DNA of 55,775 nt from Clostridia bacterium (GTDB taxonomy: Bacteria > Bacillota > Clostridia > Oscillospirales > CAG-272), in assembly GCA_017461055.1 (NCBI GenBank), contig JAFTZI010000061.1, positions 1 through 55,775 on the forward strand, written 5' to 3'. Under the pieces are notes generated by a model. It was given only the letters and a program-made list of their open reading frames with translations. It was not told where the DNA came from and ran no database searches. Position 1 is the first letter of the stretch. Every line of letters begins with the position of its first letter. Shown here piece after piece: positions 238 through 14,749 of the stretch. The position numbers and the translations under genes were made by a program.

Positions 238-324
238 TGTCACAATACGGGAGAAGCAAAGAGACCCTCAAAGCGAAAAATGAGCCTTGGAGTTCGCGTG
301 GAAAGTCCCTCCCTACCATTAAAT

Positions 325-398
325 ATTTCACGTTGCGTTTGCAACATTTCACTCGACTTTGGTCAAATTTCACCGAGCCTTGCTCGATATCACTGCAA
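325..398 (-). repeat. GTGAAAT-linker/hairpin array (family D), copy 1
   Basis: ATTTCAC at 325, 346, 367 and ATATCAC at 387, separated by short hairpins; reverse-complement homolog at 12738-12836. Confidence 0.8.
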
Positions 399-414
399 AT
401 TAACGAATGTTAAT

Positions 415-640
415 TTGCTACCCACCGAGCCGTGTAAGGCGAAAATTTGAACCTTGTGTTAACAAGGGTGGTGTCCTCATAATATCTTTACTGCTTCCAA
501 CATCTATCATCGCCTGTCCGGCAAAAGCCTCGTTAAGAGAGGGAAGATAGGAGGCCTGCAAACCAATATTGGATATTGGACTCCATTTTTAAAAGTGTAG
601 CTCGAATACATCACCTTATCACGCACTAAGCAGGAATACA
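415..640 (-). ncRNA. ssrS: 6S RNA (probable)
   Basis: On the minus strand the 5' segment GCGTGATAAGGTGA..TTCGAGCT pairs with the 3' segment GGTTCAAA..TCGCCTTACACG; 3' bubble motif CACCACC-CTTG..CAAGGTTCAAA resembles Clostridial 6S; TATAAT about 7 nt upstream (646-651); no credible ORF. Confidence 0.7.
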
Positions 641-7282: not shown

Positions 7283-7933
7283 TTGACTAAAAAGCAAAAA
7301 AGAGAAAAAATAGCCAAGGTTGTCCTGGCTTTAAAGGAGCTTTACCCAAATGCTGTCTGCTCCCTTGAATATGAGGGGGACCCTTGGAGGCTGTTAATTA
7401 TGGGTCGCTTAAGCGCCCAATGCACAGATGAAAGGGTAAATATTGTATGTAAGGAGCTTTTTTCCAAGCTTCCAACACCAGAGGCTATGGCAAATGCCCC
7501 TTTAAGTGAAATTGAAAGCATTATAAAGCCTTGCGGACTTTTCAGAATGAAGGCTAAAAACATCAAAGACGCGTCTTTTCGCTTAGTAAACGAGTATAAT
7601 GGCAACATGCCGAGTACAATGGAGGAGCTTTTAAGGTTCGAGGGCGTTGGCAGAAAAATTGCCAATTTGCTTTTAGGAGATTTGTTTGGCTTGCCTGCCA
7701 TTGTAGCGGATACCCATTGCATGCGTATTTGCGGAAGGCTGGGAATGTATAAGGAAGGAATGAAGGACCCTTATAAAACGGAAATGATTTTAAGCGAGCT
7801 TGTAGAGCCAAGCGAACAAAGCGACCTGTGTCACCGTCTTGTGCTTTTTGGCAGAGAATACTGCAAGGCGCAAAGCCCAAAATGCGACACGTGTCCCATA
7901 AAAAACATATGTAAGGATGAAAATAATGATTGA
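7283..7933 (+). CDS. nth: Endonuclease III
   Basis: LSAQCTDERVN, HhH GVGRKIAN, ADTH, C-terminal C-x6-C-x2-C-x5-C Fe-S motif; TTG start after AGGAG. Confidence 0.92.
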   Translation: MTKKQKREKIAKVVLALKELYPNAVCSLEYEGDPWRLLIMGRLSAQCTDERVNIVCKELFSKLPTPEAMANAPLSEIESIIKPCGLFRMKAKNIKDASFRLVNEYNGNMPSTMEELLRFEGVGRKIANLLLGDLFGLPAIVADTHCMRICGRLGMYKEGMKDPYKTEMILSELVEPSEQSDLCHRLVLFGREYCKAQSPKCDTCPIKNICKDENND

Positions 7934-10346
7934 ATTTAAAAAGCTACCCATAGAGAAAAATAATGAATGTCTTGACCTTGTGTGGCAGGTTTTTTGCGAG
8001 GCTGAGGCTTCTGTTTTTACAAGCGAGGGCATTTTAGAATATAAGAAAACAATAGACGAAACAAGAGAGCTGAATAACATTACCTTTTACGGTGCTATGG
8101 ATGGCGAGAGAGTTGTTGGCGTTCTCGGAATGAGAGAAAATAATCATATCGGTTATTTCTACATATCATCAAGCTATCAAAGACAGGGAATCGGCAAAGC
8201 TCTTTTTAAGCTGATGAAGAGCGACTATGAAAATAAGGTATTTACAGTAAATGCAATGCCAACAGGTGTTAATGCTTACTCCCGCTTGGGCTTTGAGCAA
8301 ACAGGGGCACTCGTTAATAACAACGGAGTAATTTCCACACCTATGAAATACAGGGAAAAAAGCATACTTAAAAGAAACGGAAATGCTCTTGAAAGGCACT
8401 ATAACTCCGAGCTTTTAAGAATAGAGCCTTGGGGAGAAAACGGATTAAGAGTCCGCGCCACTCCCGATTCGGTCTTGACAGGCAAGAACAGAGCCTTAAT
8501 CGAGCAAGCGCAAACAGAGCCCGTAATTTACATAGATGAAAACGAGGGCTACATTGTAAACGGTAACGCAAAGGCAACCGTTGACCGAAACGGTAAGGTT
8601 ACAATATATAACCAAATGGGCAAAATTATGCTTGAGGAGTCTTTAGAGCTTCAGCCCTTAAAGCGCCCTGCAAGATTTTTTAAGCCTCGCTTGTGCGGCT
8701 CATATGAATTAACAATGACCTTTAAATCAGCACCTAACGAAAGAATATTCGGTATGGGTCAATATCAACAGCCGTTTTTGAATGTAAAGGGCTGTACCCT
8801 TGAGCTATCTCACAGAAACTCACAGGCAAGCGTGCCCTTTTATATTTCGGATTTGGGCTATGGCTTCCTTTGGAATTTGCCTGCCATCGGTGAGGTTATG
8901 TTTGGCAAAAACCTTACAAAATGGAAGGCTATGGCATCAAGCGAGCTTGACTATTTAATTATTGTCGACGATACTCCCAAGCTTATTGAGGAAAAGTATA
9001 TGGAGTGTGTCGGTAAAGCGCCTAAAATGCCCGAATTTGCCCTTGGCTTTTGGCAGTCTAAGCTTCGCTATCGCACCCAAGAGGAGCTTTTAAGCGTCGC
9101 AAGAAAGTATAAGGAATTAAATATTCCCGTGTCAGTTATAGTGTGCGACTTTTTCCATTGGCCGCACCAGGGAGATTTCCGTTTTGACTATGACTATTTC
9201 CCCAGCCCCGAGGAAATGACAAGGGAGCTTAAGGAAATGGGCACAGAGCTTATGGTATCCGTTTGGCCAACAATTGAGTTCGGCAGCGAGAATTATGGGG
9301 AAATGCTTGAAAAGGGTCTGCTTATAAGAAATGACAGAGGCCCGTCTAACCACACCGAATTTGTTCACCCATCGGTATATTATGATGCAACAAATCCCGA
9401 GGCAAGAAAATTTGTGTGGGACACAGTTAAAAAGAATTATTACGACAAGGGTATACGCCTTTTCTGGCTTGACGAGGCAGAGCCCGAATACCTTCTTTAC
9501 GACTACGACAACCATAGATATTATGCGGGTATGTGCGCAGAGGTAGGAAATGTTTACCCTGTGGACTATGCAAGAGGCTTTTATGAGGGCCTTAAGGAAG
9601 TGGGAGAAGAGGAAATAATCAGCCTGGTAAGATGTGCTTGGGCAGGAAGTGCAAAATATGGCGCGCTTGTTTGGTCAGGCGATATTATGCCAACCTTTGA
9701 TGCGCTAAAATCTCAGGTAAGAGCAGGACTTAATATGGCAATTGCGGGTATTCCCTGGTGGACTACCGATATTGGCGGCTTTGATTATGGGGACCCGAGC
9801 AGTGATGAATACAGAGAGCTTGTAATGCGTTGGTTTGAGTATGCAACCTTCTGTCCTGTTTTGCGTCTGCACGGTTATCGCGCGCCTTATATTCCTGCTG
9901 AGCCAAATGCCACAGGCGGCGGTCAATGCTACACAGGCGGAGATAATGAAATTTGGAGCTACGGTGAAAAGGCATTTGAAATATGCAAGGACCACATTTT
10001 CCTTCGTGAAAGGCTAAAGCCATACATTATGGAGCAAATGGACATAGCGCACAAGGATGGCACACCCCCTATGCGCCCACTGTTCTATGATTATTCATAC
10101 GATAAGGCAGTATGGGATATAGAGGATGAATTTATGTTCGGTCCCGACCTTTTGGTTTGTCCTGTTACCGAGCTTGGACAAAGAGAAAGAGAGGTATATT
10201 TCCCTGAAGGCGAAATTTGGGTTGACCCATATACCTTTAAGGAATATATTGGCGGAGTTTCGTTAATTGTTGATGCTCCATTGGAAAGAATACCCGTCTT
10301 TGTACGTAAGGACAAGGGCTTTGATATGAAGGTGTTTAAAAAATAA
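7917..10346 (+). CDS. Fusion: N-terminal GNAT acetyltransferase plus GH31 alpha-xylosidase-like glycoside hydrolase (start may be 7926)
   Basis: First ~145 aa have the acetyl-CoA motif YQRQGIGKALF and AYSRLGFE; remainder has FWQSKLRY, nucleophile WLDEAEPE, acid/base WSGDI, TDIGGF, LRLHG. Confidence 0.85.
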   Translation: MKIMIEFKKLPIEKNNECLDLVWQVFCEAEASVFTSEGILEYKKTIDETRELNNITFYGAMDGERVVGVLGMRENNHIGYFYISSSYQRQGIGKALFKLMKSDYENKVFTVNAMPTGVNAYSRLGFEQTGALVNNNGVISTPMKYREKSILKRNGNALERHYNSELLRIEPWGENGLRVRATPDSVLTGKNRALIEQAQTEPVIYIDENEGYIVNGNAKATVDRNGKVTIYNQMGKIMLEESLELQPLKRPARFFKPRLCGSYELTMTFKSAPNERIFGMGQYQQPFLNVKGCTLELSHRNSQASVPFYISDLGYGFLWNLPAIGEVMFGKNLTKWKAMASSELDYLIIVDDTPKLIEEKYMECVGKAPKMPEFALGFWQSKLRYRTQEELLSVARKYKELNIPVSVIVCDFFHWPHQGDFRFDYDYFPSPEEMTRELKEMGTELMVSVWPTIEFGSENYGEMLEKGLLIRNDRGPSNHTEFVHPSVYYDATNPEARKFVWDTVKKNYYDKGIRLFWLDEAEPEYLLYDYDNHRYYAGMCAEVGNVYPVDYARGFYEGLKEVGEEEIISLVRCAWAGSAKYGALVWSGDIMPTFDALKSQVRAGLNMAIAGIPWWTTDIGGFDYGDPSSDEYRELVMRWFEYATFCPVLRLHGYRAPYIPAEPNATGGGQCYTGGDNEIWSYGEKAFEICKDHIFLRERLKPYIMEQMDIAHKDGTPPMRPLFYDYSYDKAVWDIEDEFMFGPDLLVCPVTELGQREREVYFPEGEIWVDPYTFKEYIGGVSLIVDAPLERIPVFVRKDKGFDMKVFKK

Positions 10347-11860
10347 TGGAGTATGCAGTAGTAGTTGTAGCGTCCATTTTGGCAGGCGTTGGCACAGGAC
10401 TTGTGGGTCTTAGCGCCGCTACTGCAATGGTACCGCTTATGATAGTTTTGTGCCCAACCTTTATGGGTGAGCACGGTGTTTATATGGCAACGGCAATAGC
10501 CTTGGCAAGTGATATTCTTGCCTCTGCTGTTACCTCTGCCACCTATGCAAAAAACAAAAATATTGATTTAAAGCGCGGTGGCATCTTCTTCGGCTGTATT
10601 GTGGTTATGAGTATTGTAGGCTCGGTAGTTGCTTACTTTACACACCCCGCAGTTCTTAGCGGATATTCACTTATTATGTGCGTTCTTATCGGTCTTAGAT
10701 TTGTGGTAATGCCGGAATCTAAGGAGAGGGTAAGAAAAACAAAGGATGCAGGACTTACAGGCTGGGAGCTGGCAGTTTCCATAGGCTTCGGTATTGGTGT
10801 TGGCTTCTGCACCGCCTTTTTCGGCTCGGGCGGAGGACTTATGATGCTTGTTGTTTTAACATCGCTTATGTCCTTTGAAAGAAAGGTTGCAGTAGGTACA
10901 TCAACCTTTATTATGACCTTTACAGCCTTGATAGCCGCAGTCAGCCACATTATCGTTGAGCCTAAGATAATTTTGGAATGCTGGGACTTTATGATAGTCG
11001 GCATTGTAACAACCACAGTATTTGCTCTTATAAGCGCAAGATTTGCAAACAGAGTAAGCGGTGAGGTAACAGGCTATGTAACGGGAGTTACCCTTTTCTT
11101 GCTCGGTCTTATACTTATAGTTCTTAACAATACAGATAAAATAGATGCTACATATTTCCTTGATTTTATAACTGTATTAATAGTGCTGGGAGCATATATA
11201 GGAGCTCTTTCCCTTATTTTCATTGTGCTTCGATACACAACAAAAATACCCGATTATATTTTCAGAAAGCTGATTCACGCAGTGGTATATACATCTATAA
11301 TACCAATGGCAATACTAACGGACAAGTGGATTGTTACAATTTTAGTTGCCCTTGTATTTTATGTGCTTGCTGTTTTTGGCTTTATGATAATAGAAAGATA
11401 CAATTTCTATAAAACGCTTTTTGTAGAAAAAACAAGGCAAAAGGTCGCCTTTGATTTTGCGCTTCTATATGGAATTATTGTAATTCTTTTGTTCATTTTC
11501 TGGGGACTTTTGGGAGATTCCTATAAGTATATTGCCATAACCTCAATTCTTGCTTGGGGCCCGGGAGATGCAATGGCAACCGTAATCGGCAAAAAATACG
11601 GTAAGCATAAGCTAAGAAGTAAGCTTATAGACGGAGAAAAAACAGTTGAGGGTACAACAGCTATGGCAATTGTATCATTTATATGCACCCTTGTGTGCTT
11701 GCTTGTATTTTCAAGCATAAGCTGGTACGTGTGCATAATGCTTGCCTTAATGGTTGCGCCTGTTGTGGCAGTAGCCGAGCTATATACACCCAAGGGCTTT
11801 GATGCCATAAGTGTTCCCGTAGCGGCGTGCCTGACCCTTTGTGTTTCAATATTTGTATAG
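10346..11860 (+). CDS. Fusion membrane protein: TauE/SafE-family exporter plus phytol/dolichol-kinase-like (CTP-dependent) domain
   Basis: N-half: AGVGTGLVGLSAA, GSGGGLMM, AVGTS (TauE-type repeats); C-half: RKLIH, GDAMATVIGKKYG, KTVEG, ELYTPKGFD. Confidence 0.75.
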   Translation: MEYAVVVVASILAGVGTGLVGLSAATAMVPLMIVLCPTFMGEHGVYMATAIALASDILASAVTSATYAKNKNIDLKRGGIFFGCIVVMSIVGSVVAYFTHPAVLSGYSLIMCVLIGLRFVVMPESKERVRKTKDAGLTGWELAVSIGFGIGVGFCTAFFGSGGGLMMLVVLTSLMSFERKVAVGTSTFIMTFTALIAAVSHIIVEPKIILECWDFMIVGIVTTTVFALISARFANRVSGEVTGYVTGVTLFLLGLILIVLNNTDKIDATYFLDFITVLIVLGAYIGALSLIFIVLRYTTKIPDYIFRKLIHAVVYTSIIPMAILTDKWIVTILVALVFYVLAVFGFMIIERYNFYKTLFVEKTRQKVAFDFALLYGIIVILLFIFWGLLGDSYKYIAITSILAWGPGDAMATVIGKKYGKHKLRSKLIDGEKTVEGTTAMAIVSFICTLVCLLVFSSISWYVCIMLALMVAPVVAVAELYTPKGFDAISVPVAACLTLCVSIFV

Positions 11861-11972: not shown

Positions 11973-12716
11973 ATGAGAAATATATTTGCCGCTCAATTTA
12001 AGGAATACAGAAAAAAGCTGGATATTTCACAGGAGGAAATAGCTGAAAGGCTGAATGTAACCTCTCAGGCAGTATCTAAGTGGGAGTGCGAAAGATCCTA
12101 TCCCGATGTGGAAATGCTTGTAAACATTGCAAGCCTGTTTCAAATAAGCTTAGACGAGCTTATTTTGGGGAAAGCGGACTCTTGTGTTTCCAATATTCCT
12201 AATGATAATAAGCTAAGATTGGTGCTTTGCAGAGGCACAGAGGTAATAGATTCTAAGGAGACCGATGTCACTATGAGAATTATGCTTGATACAGAGTTCG
12301 AAAATATGGAAGTCCTTGGTAATGCTAACATTTATGGCGAGGTGAAAGGTAATATAAGTGCAGATGGCAGTGTAAATTGCGACTCTGTGCGTGGCAATGT
12401 AAGCGCGGGCACAAGCGTAAACTGTGACGAGGTTTTAGGAAACGTTACTGCGGGCGCAGGAGTTAACTGTGACGGAGTAGACGGTGATGTTAACGCCGGC
12501 ACAAATATAGTTTGTGATGATATAGGCGGAAATGTAAACTGCGGACTTACCATTCAATGTGATAACATTTCGGGCAGCGTTACCTGCGGAATGACTATCA
12601 CCTGCGACACCATTGACGGTGACATTTTAGAATGCAACGGAGATATTCACGTAAAAACCTTAAATGGCAAGGTTAACAAATGCGAAAAGACAGTTTATTT
12701 AAAGGACGACAAGTAG
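11973..12716 (+). CDS. XRE-family HTH regulator with a C-terminal Cys-containing 16-aa tandem repeat (beta-solenoid-like)
   Basis: ISQEEIAERLNVTSQAVSKWE..YPD HTH; repeats G(N/D)V-x-AG-x2-VNCD; AAGGAG RBS supports ATG 11973 rather than 11919. Confidence 0.85.
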   Translation: MRNIFAAQFKEYRKKLDISQEEIAERLNVTSQAVSKWECERSYPDVEMLVNIASLFQISLDELILGKADSCVSNIPNDNKLRLVLCRGTEVIDSKETDVTMRIMLDTEFENMEVLGNANIYGEVKGNISADGSVNCDSVRGNVSAGTSVNCDEVLGNVTAGAGVNCDGVDGDVNAGTNIVCDDIGGNVNCGLTIQCDNISGSVTCGMTITCDTIDGDILECNGDIHVKTLNGKVNKCEKTVYLKDDK

Positions 12717-12737
12717 CAAGACAACACAAGGTTGCCT

Positions 12738-12836
12738 TGCAGTGAAATCGAGGCTGTGCCTCGGTGAAATTCGCCCAAGGTCGAGTGAAATGTTGCAGAG
12801 ACGCAACGTGAAATTTTTGCTAAAGCAAAAGTGATA
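12738..12836 (+). repeat. GTGAAAT-linker/hairpin array (family D), copy 2
   Basis: GTGAAAT at 12742, 12764, 12785, 12808 and GTGATAA at 12831, each separated by a hairpin. Confidence 0.8.
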
Positions 12837-12854
12837 AGTAACAAACACAAAATT

Positions 12855-13276
12855 GTAGGGGTCGACGTCCCCGACGACCCGTTATTAATCACGAATTTAT
12901 TCGTGCATATCATCACGCAATTTTGCGTGTATATCATCAATGGGTTAAGCATTGTATATCATCAACACGTATGTGTTGTATATTCCTGTAGGGGTCAGAC
13001 CTTAGACGACCCGTTATCGATCACGCATTTTTGCGTGTATGGAATCACACTTTTGTGTGTATGGGCAAGTACCCGGAGACCCGTAAATGCTCTCTCCCTC
13101 CGTCTTGCTTACGCAATCCACCTCCCTCGTCAGATGGAGGCTTATGTAGGGGTCGACGTCCTCGACGACCCGTTATTAATCACGAATAAATTCGTGATTG
13201 ATTTTCGGGCGATTCGTGAATCGCCCCTACAAATTGGGTAACATTCACATCGTAGGGCGGTGGCTTGCTGCCGCCG
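12855..13276. repeat. Cluster of GTAG-type REP palindromes (family A)
   Basis: GTAGGGGTCGACGTCCCCGACGACCCG at 12855 with variants at 12988 and 13146, an inverted GTAG palindrome at 13206-13230, and GTAGGGCGGTGGC..GCCGCCG at 13252. Confidence 0.8.
12888..13064 (+). repeat. GTATATCATC-linker/hairpin arrays (family E)
   Basis: Linkers at 12905, 12929, 12954, 12978 (period 24-25) and 13037, 13059; every spacer is self-complementary. Confidence 0.75.
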
Positions 13277-13314
13277 AAATAACAAGGTACTACAAATTAA
13301 GTTTAACACATCAA

Positions 13315-13511
13315 TCAAGCCTTGCGCAAGACAAAGCAGATTCTTGCACAAGGCATACTGCGTAATCGGCAAGCCTCGGAATGACAGATTCGTTTTGCGT
13401 TTTCTCTATTGTTAAAAAGACGGACTCATTTTACATTTTCCCTGTTGTCATCCTGAGCGAAGCGAATGGATCTTTGTTAAGCTTGTCGTATGGGCGAGCA
13501 TTGGTCGTCCG
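13315..13511. repeat. GTCAT(C/T)CTGAG..GATCT palindromic repeat pair (family C) plus a degenerate GTAG REP
   Basis: Reverse-complement homolog of 48290-48385 with two insertions; GTATGGGCGAGCATTGGTCGTCCG at 13488. Confidence 0.75.
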
Positions 13512-13527
13512 TTTTTCTATGTACAAC

Positions 13528-13557
13528 AAAAAAGACCGTTTTGAAACGGTCTTTTTT
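13528..13557 (-). terminator. Intrinsic terminator of rplJL (bidirectional)
   Basis: AAAAAAGACCGTTT-tg-AAACGGTCTTTTTT. Confidence 0.85.
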
Positions 13558-13578
13558 ATATGTTGGCTTAAATTTAAA

Positions 13579-14555: not shown

Positions 14556-14579
14556 AAAACAACCTCCTTAGATATTTCC

Positions 14580-14712
14580 GTAAAACAAAAAGTCTTTTTT
14601 CGAATTTGCAAAAATGCGCGCCGAAAAAAGACTTAATTATCATATAAATAATATTAATTCTTCCTCGGCAGGGAGCATAAAGCAATTACTGAGACCTGCT
14701 GTCTTTGGATTT
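14580..14712 (-). promoter_or_regulatory. L10 leader (autoregulatory attenuator)
   Basis: Minus strand CCAAAGACAGCAGG..CCTGCCGAGG followed by terminator AAGTCTTTTTTCG..CGAAAAAAGACTT-TTTG upstream of rplJ. Confidence 0.85.
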
Positions 14713-14720
14713 GCCTTGAC

Positions 14721-14749
14721 ATTATAGCACACTAAATATGCCTTGTCAA
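14721..14749 (-). promoter_or_regulatory. sigmaA promoter of rplJL
   Basis: Perfect TTGACA-17 nt-TATAAT with extended TGn. Confidence 0.85.

Follow-up and report, generated by a model that had tools for sequence, protein, structure and literature searches.

Two Gut-1 hairpin-heptamer arrays in a Clostridia genome: dispersed, gene-less repeats that resemble one arm of PF05635 cassettes

The window (the whole stretch of DNA that was analysed, 55,775 nt) carries two arrays of short hairpins joined by a constant heptamer, GTGAAAT. The first array lies behind a gene encoding an XRE-family HTH protein (11973..12716, + strand; 247 aa; PF01381, E 7.5e-14), the C-terminal part of which is beta-solenoid-like (weak PF03961 match, under the cut-off). 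It belongs to a one-armed element (12716..12850, + strand; 3' end approximate) whose ends were set by comparing genomic copies and which consists of a 5' hairpin (12716..12740, +), four linker+hairpin units, a degenerate fifth linker (12831-12837) and an A-rich tail. All four linkers read GTGAAAT (12742..12748, 12764..12770, 12785..12791 and 12808..12814, +), at a spacing of 22, 21 and 23 nt, and they are followed by hairpin 1 (12749-12763), an imperfect hairpin 2 (12771-12784), hairpin 3 (12792-12807) and hairpin 4 (12815-12830) respectively. We refer to this subfamily of Gut-1-type elements, which is amplified in this genome, as type A. The convergent rplL gene (L7/L12; 13579..13950, - strand) is the neighbour downstream, and a hairpin with A/T runs on either side lies near it, at about 13528-13560. 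The second copy (320..418, - strand) lies behind a 6S RNA (415..639, -; RF00013, 63.8 bits). It has three hairpins, a 5' hairpin of its own (418-395) and linkers at 393-387 (GTGATAT) and at 373-367, 352-346 and 331-325 (GTGAAAT), and it runs on into other repeat modules as far as the contig end. The XRE gene and the 6S RNA are host neighbours outside the elements.

A BIME-like mosaic of other hairpin repeats (12853..13530) surrounds the arrays. It includes a second kind of hairpin-linker array with an 8-nt linker, TATATCAT, which we call type B (12903..12986, +; degenerate relative near 13020-13065) and which an earlier list of arrays, drawn up from the sequence alone, had overlooked. GTAG-tagged hairpins are found at 12855, 12988, 13146 and 13252 (+) and at 13224-13230 (-), GTCAT-tagged hairpins at 13375 and 13447, and a repeat of the kind flanking the DUF559 genes of this genome at 13092-13140. 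The four DUF559 (PF04480) genes (C130:728-1024, C157:1886-2194, C15:8916-9209 and C87:4110-4427) are each flanked by their own inverted hairpin repeats, a parallel system of small gene plus repeat. A similar link between a GIY-YIG gene and the GTCAT-tagged hairpins found no support, as the short GIY-YIG gene of the genome has no flanking repeats.

Runs of at least three linkers at 18-26 nt spacing occurred twice in the window and in none of 200 shuffles. On the GUGAAAU strand, the hairpins of both arrays gave folding z-scores of -4.1 to -5.2, whether taken as RNA or as DNA (equalled by 0 of 200 shuffles), and both copies surpassed their shuffles by far whichever strand and whichever of the two molecules was folded. 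Linker positions, folds and shuffles bear out the sequence-only reading that GTGAAAT recurs every 21-23 nt with a different hairpin in each spacer. That reading had also left a gap of about 20-25 nt between each array and its upstream gene. The distances hold (about 25 nt from the XRE stop at 12716 and 21 nt from the end of the 6S match at 415), but the gap is not empty: it is occupied by the element's own hairpin (12716-12740 and 418-395), so that one copy starts on the final base of the XRE stop codon (12716) and the other reaches into the 3' end of the 6S RNA. The two copies are homologous and share the hairpin order overall, as had been noticed, but hairpin 2 is imperfect in both and the 6S-side copy has no fourth hairpin.

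Both window arrays are copies of the Rfam family Gut-1 (RF01706). Positions 12740-12819 (+) matched the model at 53.9 bits (cut-off 50) and positions 320-395 (-) at 49.9 bits, just below the cut-off of 50 (E 9e-9), both by cmscan; both align over all 77 model positions and show the three hairpins parted by conserved GUGAAAU and the covarying stems of the family, with 94.4% of cells paired in an alignment of 29 paralogues. The sequence-only reading had found no named family to assign and had listed an Rfam match among the outcomes that would tell against it; comparison with Rfam gave just such a match. Gut-1 was described as a candidate non-coding RNA, known from 43 representatives in gut metagenomes, and its description gives no function (PMC2864571); it also serves as a folding benchmark (PMC13674262). 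The motif has thus been catalogued since 2010, and the hairpin-array observation as originally written is not new. The window copies agree with Gut-1 in their three short variable hairpins joined by GUGAAAU. By contrast with the account in PMC2864571, the motif here is dispersed in high copy and has further hairpins to its left and right, and it is one arm of a two-armed element that is tied to PF05635 genes and has DNA-like loops.

The array had been described as present twice, which is true of the window but not of the genome. At least 65 RF01706 matches were found at E <=1, at least 59 of them at 31 bits or more and at least 42 above the cut-off; these counts are lower bounds, 150 of 313 candidates having been scored. 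A separate array detector returned 84 arrays in the genome, compared to 4-10 in three shuffles. With gene positions taken from home-made gene calls, none of 59 copies lay inside a called gene; the upstream neighbour was a co-oriented gene or RNA for 41 copies and an opposite one for 7, and 11 had no upstream gene on the contig. Collapsed to 51 loci, the figures were 35, 6 and 10, a sense bias of 35/41 loci (p 5e-6 against one half), and the orientation test proposed at the outset therefore revealed a bias towards the upstream transcript. Three contigs, including this one, carry arrays in both orientations, each in line with transcription. The 17 copies with both neighbours known lay between tandem (9) or convergent (8) genes and never between divergent ones, compared to a divergent background of 146/513. 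A co-oriented gene end lies within 1 kb of 36 copies; 14 of these start at -12 to +4 of the stop codon, and most of the others come after another repeat module. Gut-1-type repeats also lie at many contig ends of this assembly. A codon-skew model (59% leading, split on A/T only) gave no credible replichore separation, and no conclusion on leading- or lagging-strand placement is drawn from it.

Seven copies (contigs C27, C28, C49, C97, C166, C183 and C186) overlap a reading frame by its last 12 nt. There the gene enters the element and stops at the TAA/TGA of the first hairpin, which adds four residues. Four of the seven genes look like paralogous gene ends, and such ends running into the element suggest that the native gene end was replaced.

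The window arrays are lineage-specific insertions. Behind the XRE gene the array was absent in 3/3 relatives, and behind 6S it was absent in 26/29; the three exceptions were the closest relative (G015), with an array at the same site, and two genomes with a separate array past the terminator. An earlier suggestion tied the arrays to the upstream transcript; a special link to XRE or 6S is not supported, most orthologous sites being empty, and these neighbours are incidental. The 6S-site array of G015 has the same 5' hairpin as the window copy, together with TGATAT linkers and different hairpins 2-3. The 6S-site copy of each genome thus resembles the dispersed family of that genome, which suggests gene conversion. 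In 14 of 16 stretches of G015 an array was present, 13 of these with an alignable flank here; 7 of the 13 comparable sites are empty in this genome and 6 are shared. Among the sites empty here, one junction lies exactly at a stop codon and one inside a terminator hairpin. Target-site duplications were not seen by eye at 10 junctions, where flanks are 10-30% diverged.

The copies vary greatly in their stems. The 41 copies compared carried 34 distinct hairpin combinations, some of them chimeric and with broken stems, although linkers 2-4 were near the consensus heptamer in 41/41. Among 29 paralogous copies, 13 of 32 pairs had changed on both sides, and 0/500 shuffles did as well; the early observation that pairing is kept while stems change is borne out, in a set of paralogues in which palindrome repair can yield double changes too. 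The polarity of stem mismatches was uninformative. An exact 34-nt piece of the array had no match in genome, viral and metagenome collections, from which near-identical genomes are perhaps missing, and thus led to no longer assembly with a cognate gene; the best match in five close relatives was 85%.

The complete form of the element consists of two inverted heptamer+hairpin arms beside a PF05635 gene, and the window copies resemble one arm. This genome has a single PF05635 gene, with two inverted heptamer+hairpin arms directly upstream, behind two tRNAs and a terminator. Its linkers are TGAAG-type, unlike GTGAAAT. A tblastn search with 31 PF05635 proteins revealed no second or partial gene in the assembly (90% complete, 195 contigs). 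Window-type two-armed arrays end at contig breaks on C68, C72 and C126, and the cognate GTGAAAT-type gene may lie beyond these contig ends. Neither window copy has a PF05635 gene nearby, nor a second inverted arm with the gene in cis: full elements have inverted arms and the window copies are single arms. At locus L073 of another genome, the two arms before the gene both score above the Gut-1 cut-off, one on each strand (64.4 and 51.4 bits), and use the linker type of the window; the window arrays share with these cassette arms their four to five hairpin-separated heptamers of the type seen beside PF05635 genes.

A family-blind detector found inverted heptamer arms at 45/60 PF05635 loci, compared to 9/120 control genes, two of the nine control hits being true arrays. 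In a second set of 80 named genomes, both arms lay upstream at 58/76 evaluable PF05635 loci; the detector overlooks degenerate arrays, and several loci scored as 'none' in this set show arrays by eye. PF05635 loci of this set lay behind a co-oriented tRNA in 52/80 cases, and these tRNAs were of 14 amino-acid types, which argues against a single integrase site. Approached from the repeat, a PF05635 gene was present within about 1.5 kb of 6/56 top Gut-1 loci (controls 0/58), most Gut-1 copies being gene-less and one- or two-armed. At the level of whole genomes, 26 of 40 relatives had both Gut-1 and PF05635, 3 Gut-1 only, 1 the gene only and 10 neither; with one genome per family the numbers were 6, 2, 0 and 8. 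Among 139 genomes drawn from across the class, with this genome and one limited genome omitted and 30 RNA candidates scored per genome, a PF05635 gene was present in 22/25 Gut-1-positive and 27/114 Gut-1-negative genomes (Fisher 2.5e-9, a value overstated by kinship among genomes). The search for genes co-occurring with the arrays, as initially advised, thus led to PF05635, linked both physically and at the genome level.

Heptamer types, labelled by eye on a tree of 59 of the 60 PF05635 proteins (truncated protein L087 left out), track the protein clade across host families. This match implies that the cassette travels as a unit; it does not imply recognition, since linkage alone suffices. A promoter-like site was found between array and gene in 15/30 cassettes (8% in shuffles) and a terminator ahead of the array in 13/30; the -35 region of the promoter-like site often directly adjoins the last heptamer. 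At distant PF05635 genes the inverted heptamer arms recur as a plain 7-nt tandem with no hairpins. In two groups of such loci (L187-L215 and L344-L368), among them 15 of 25 on viral contigs, the plain 7-nt tandem repeats stand in inverted sets that mostly flank the gene on both sides, and two loci have 11-nt units.

The type-B array is laid out like the first arm in PF05635 cassettes of reversed polarity (L085-L087; see the array ahead of the L087 gene). The genome has 40 type-B arrays, and 13 of them closely follow a type-A arm of the same orientation. Type B as a second arm pairing with type A was not supported: the folds showed no ladder pairing, and the 8-nt linker is different. Closely related genes with 70-76% identity and the same kind of array were seen on contigs of other phyla (L308, L312 and L315, Victivallales; L302, Bacteroidaceae), where binning errors are possible; the Victivallales arms (L308, L312, L315) are in reversed order. 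At L229, L230 and L231 (G187), a tRNA 3' end is duplicated ahead of the arrays, its two copies being separated by about 150-200 nt of a different repeat.

The PF05635 protein of this genome was modelled as a four-helix bundle (pLDDT 95.7) that matches 2RLD (TM 0.94) and also 2GSC. Both of these structures have five chains, and the 2GSC protein is a toroidal homopentamer (PMC4990558). The protein is all-helical, with no ribbon-helix-helix or HTH match. Residues Q35, S42, A45, N46, E49, D58, K62, K68, E69 and E72 (L060 numbering) are invariant in 23 PF05635 proteins, a conserved set unusually polar for a plain bundle. Avd, the accessory protein of diversity-generating retroelements (4DWL, 8UB7), has the same fold at about 12% identity (TM 0.76-0.80; 4DWL 0.80). 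Avd binds nucleic acid. It has been described as guiding the reverse transcriptase to its RNA (10.1101/2024.11.15.621889). A diversity-generating retroelement was rejected here, as no reverse transcriptase was found in the 90%-complete assembly (0 PF00078 matches). In the tables of PMC5524665 and PMC8700078 the protein is merely named.

The hairpin loops differ between the strands. In arrays of other genomes, GNA triloops made up 42/77 on the ATTTCA strand and 0/77 on the GUGAAAU strand; of the tetraloops, 24/41 were GNNA on the ATTTCA strand, just 8 of these GNRA, and none was UUCG. In 23 cassettes of the usual polarity, picked from 30, cGNAg occurred 43 times antisense vs. once sense in the first arm, and 26 times sense vs. 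twice antisense in the second. In the second set, unfiltered for polarity, the ratios were 113:7 (first arm) and 57:24 (second arm). GCGNAGC/GCGNNAGC sequences are DNA mini-hairpins, their RNA counterparts being much less stable (PMC13037366). Motif screens of the kind that yielded Gut-1 also return single-stranded DNA motifs (PMC5737381; this paper has no passage on Gut-1 or the helix bundle). In the subfamily amplified in this genome, T-N-T triloops predominate (18/46, ANA on the other strand), with 7 of the GNA type and non-GNA tetraloops, so the DNA signature is weaker in exactly the window-type copies. ANA triloops are likewise favoured in DNA. With the evidence for either molecule weighed together, the arrays would act as DNA rather than RNA with fair probability. 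Of the two molecules first proposed, an RNA scaffold or a single-stranded DNA substrate, the former is weakened by the DNA-like loops on the non-transcribed strand and the latter fits best, and a multivalent protein-binding element, also proposed then, is the best reading of the putative function here.

The likely reading is that of a REP-like, non-autonomous repeat whose heptamers would be read on folded single-stranded DNA by a pentamer. With moderate confidence, we regard the arrays as dispersed gene-less Gut-1 arms that would fold as single-stranded DNA and have their heptamers bound by the predicted pentameric ring of PF05635. Extruded hairpins would bring the heptamers into line, in the arrangement of the plain tandem, and this would explain the fixed heptamer and the free stem sequence and length, and four to five heptamers on a folded single strand would be presented to a five-subunit ring; on balance, the PF05635 pentamer probably binds them. 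Each DNA strand of the full cassette would present one active arm, comparable to an end of a mobile element, and the cassette would dock behind or within host hairpins and gene ends. That the bound complex aids copying or insertion beside an existing hairpin or gene end is tentative, and such a step might involve host recombination or repair enzymes or another activity of the PF05635 protein. One-armed copies would be homogenised and reshuffled by gene conversion within REP-like mosaics, standing to the cassettes as REPs do to RAYT genes, and the window copies would be sense-orientation first arms, non-autonomous and amplified in this lineage. The main gap in this model is that the linkers beside the sole PF05635 gene of the assembly are of the TGAAG type rather than GTGAAAT. 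The sense orientation and stem-base pairs, which fit RNA, and the non-independence of the genomes also count against it. A bolder version is somewhat unlikely: Gut-1 and PF05635 would be widespread minimal selfish elements in which the pentamer reads inverted heptamer arrays on single-stranded DNA and drives copying into host hairpins without a transposase, recombinase or reverse transcriptase of its own. Copies might then go into terminators, tRNA ends, stop codons and 23S rRNA helices, at the loop or on the 3' side of the hairpin, the invariant Q/R/S/N/E/D/K/E/E residues might form an active or binding site, and the one-armed copies of the window would be REP-like progeny. No transposase, reverse transcriptase or target-site duplication was identified in this genome or at the 10 G015 junctions inspected; PF01797 (HUH) and PF00078 (reverse transcriptase) each gave 0 matches in the 90%-complete assembly.

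Alternatively, Gut-1 might be a structured 3'-region RNA that stabilises or processes transcripts, or that a protein, perhaps the four-helix bundle itself, binds in RNA form. The original authors rated Gut-1 an RNA (PMC2864571), and the related heptamers of 23S rRNA lie within an RNase III-cut RNA stem (PMC4990558). Moreover, 35/41 loci are co-oriented with the upstream transcript, the three contigs with both orientations follow transcription, there is no terminator-like site from the XRE stop to the array, and constant A-U/U-G pairs at the stem bases lengthen each stem on the GUGAAAU strand and fold better as transcribed-strand RNA. We nevertheless consider this RNA unlikely. The loop cUUCGg is nearly absent (a single case in the 23 cassettes and another in the second set), GNA triloops avoid the GUGAAAU strand altogether, many cassette arrays have a terminator on one side and a promoter on the other, the arrays are not conserved behind any particular transcript, and the two-armed elements are strand-symmetric. 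It is quite improbable, too, that the one-armed copies are mere passengers from a PF05635 cassette on which the protein no longer acts, spread in REP-like mosaics by host recombination or by a RAYT- or DUF559-type nuclease, with covariation produced by template-switch palindrome repair. Most copies do lie within mosaics with short junction words common to other repeats, some stems are chimeric or broken, the assembly has no PF05635 gene with the matching heptamer, and one kind of the hairpin repeats of its four DUF559 genes is present in the intergenic region of the window. Against passengers speak linkers 2-4, which stay near the consensus in 41/41 copies while stems vary, Gut-1 presence tracking PF05635 presence across genomes and several insertions behind stop codons that start directly with the Gut-1 arm; a PF01797 gene was not found in the assembly.

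Two further alternatives concern other DNA-binding partners. Omega and ParG are ribbon-helix-helix proteins that bind contiguous heptads on duplex DNA, and the heptamers could likewise form a double-stranded operator or centromere-like array at which the protein represses its own promoter and which dispersed copies titrate. The last cassette heptamer, often abutting the -35 of the promoter-like site, would suit such a role, and the reverse complement of GTGATAT resembles the Omega heptad. The heptamers here, however, are 21-23 nt apart, and across and within arrays their spacing ranges from 7 to >30 bp, which breaks helical phasing; the spacers are hairpins with strand-specific loops, and the partner is all-helical with no ribbon-helix-helix or HTH match, which makes an operator very improbable. 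Scarcely credible is the idea that the arrays are in-trans substrates of a HUH (RAYT/IS200-type) transposase, also put forward in the sequence-only reading. They do sit among GTAG-tagged hairpins, a class hypothesised to be RAYT-mobilised (PMC3733652), and have a REP-like placement behind stop codons, but the 90%-complete assembly has no PF01797 match, the linked gene is PF05635 and the arms have no GTAG tag.

The reading as PF05635-bound, REP-like repeats can be set beside known systems. Gut-1 works like REP/RAYT without being a member. Like REP/REPIN/BIME elements (PMC3733652), Gut-1 copies are small high-copy extragenic hairpin repeats that lie mainly downstream of genes, in mosaics, often touch stop codons, avoid divergent intergenic regions and are linked to a rare single gene. 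By contrast, the Gut-1 arm has no GTAG/CGTC tag (GTAG tags occur in neighbouring modules only), it has several hairpins and a constant linker rather than one palindrome, and its partner is a four-helix bundle without known catalytic activity and not a HUH enzyme; a cognate HUH transposase was not found. This would be a REP-like repeat system whose partner is no HUH transposase. The 23S rRNA intervening sequences encode a protein of the same family as the cassettes (S23p/IVP, PF05635; 2RLD, 2GSC), with tandem heptamers upstream of the S23p gene (PMC4990558). They are also bordered by complementary ends and replace a small hairpin loop, a further likeness to the cassettes (PMC4990558). The differences are that those heptamers are plain tandems in rRNA, whereas here hairpins separate them and both arms are usually upstream, that the sites here are tRNA terminators and gene ends, and that the window copies are gene-less. 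The genomic context links two orphans, an 'RNA' motif and a protein family of solved structure with no assigned function (S23p/IVP), and one binding question could account for both and possibly for the movement of the 23S rRNA intervening sequences. On the DNA reading, what Rfam lists as an sRNA family would be a single-stranded-DNA repeat. We found no paper in open-access PubMed Central or bioRxiv joining Gut-1 or hairpin-heptamer arrays to PF05635.

A possible tandem counterpart has been described in a Beggiatoaceae genome, with 169 sets of dispersed TAACTGA heptamer repeats whose origin is given there as not known (PMC4679880). These may be the tandem form of the Gut-1/PF05635 system; the account of the repeats in that paper makes no mention of four-helix-bundle proteins. 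Three other features of the window lie apart from the arrays. Positions 7917-10346 (+) encode an 809-aa fusion of a GNAT acetyltransferase domain and a glycoside hydrolase family 31 enzyme. Positions 10346-11860 (+) encode a 504-aa protein with TauE/SafE in residues 7-255 only, the C-terminal half having no Pfam match at E 0.001. An ordinary L10 leader (14577-14726, -) lies upstream of rplJ-rplL.
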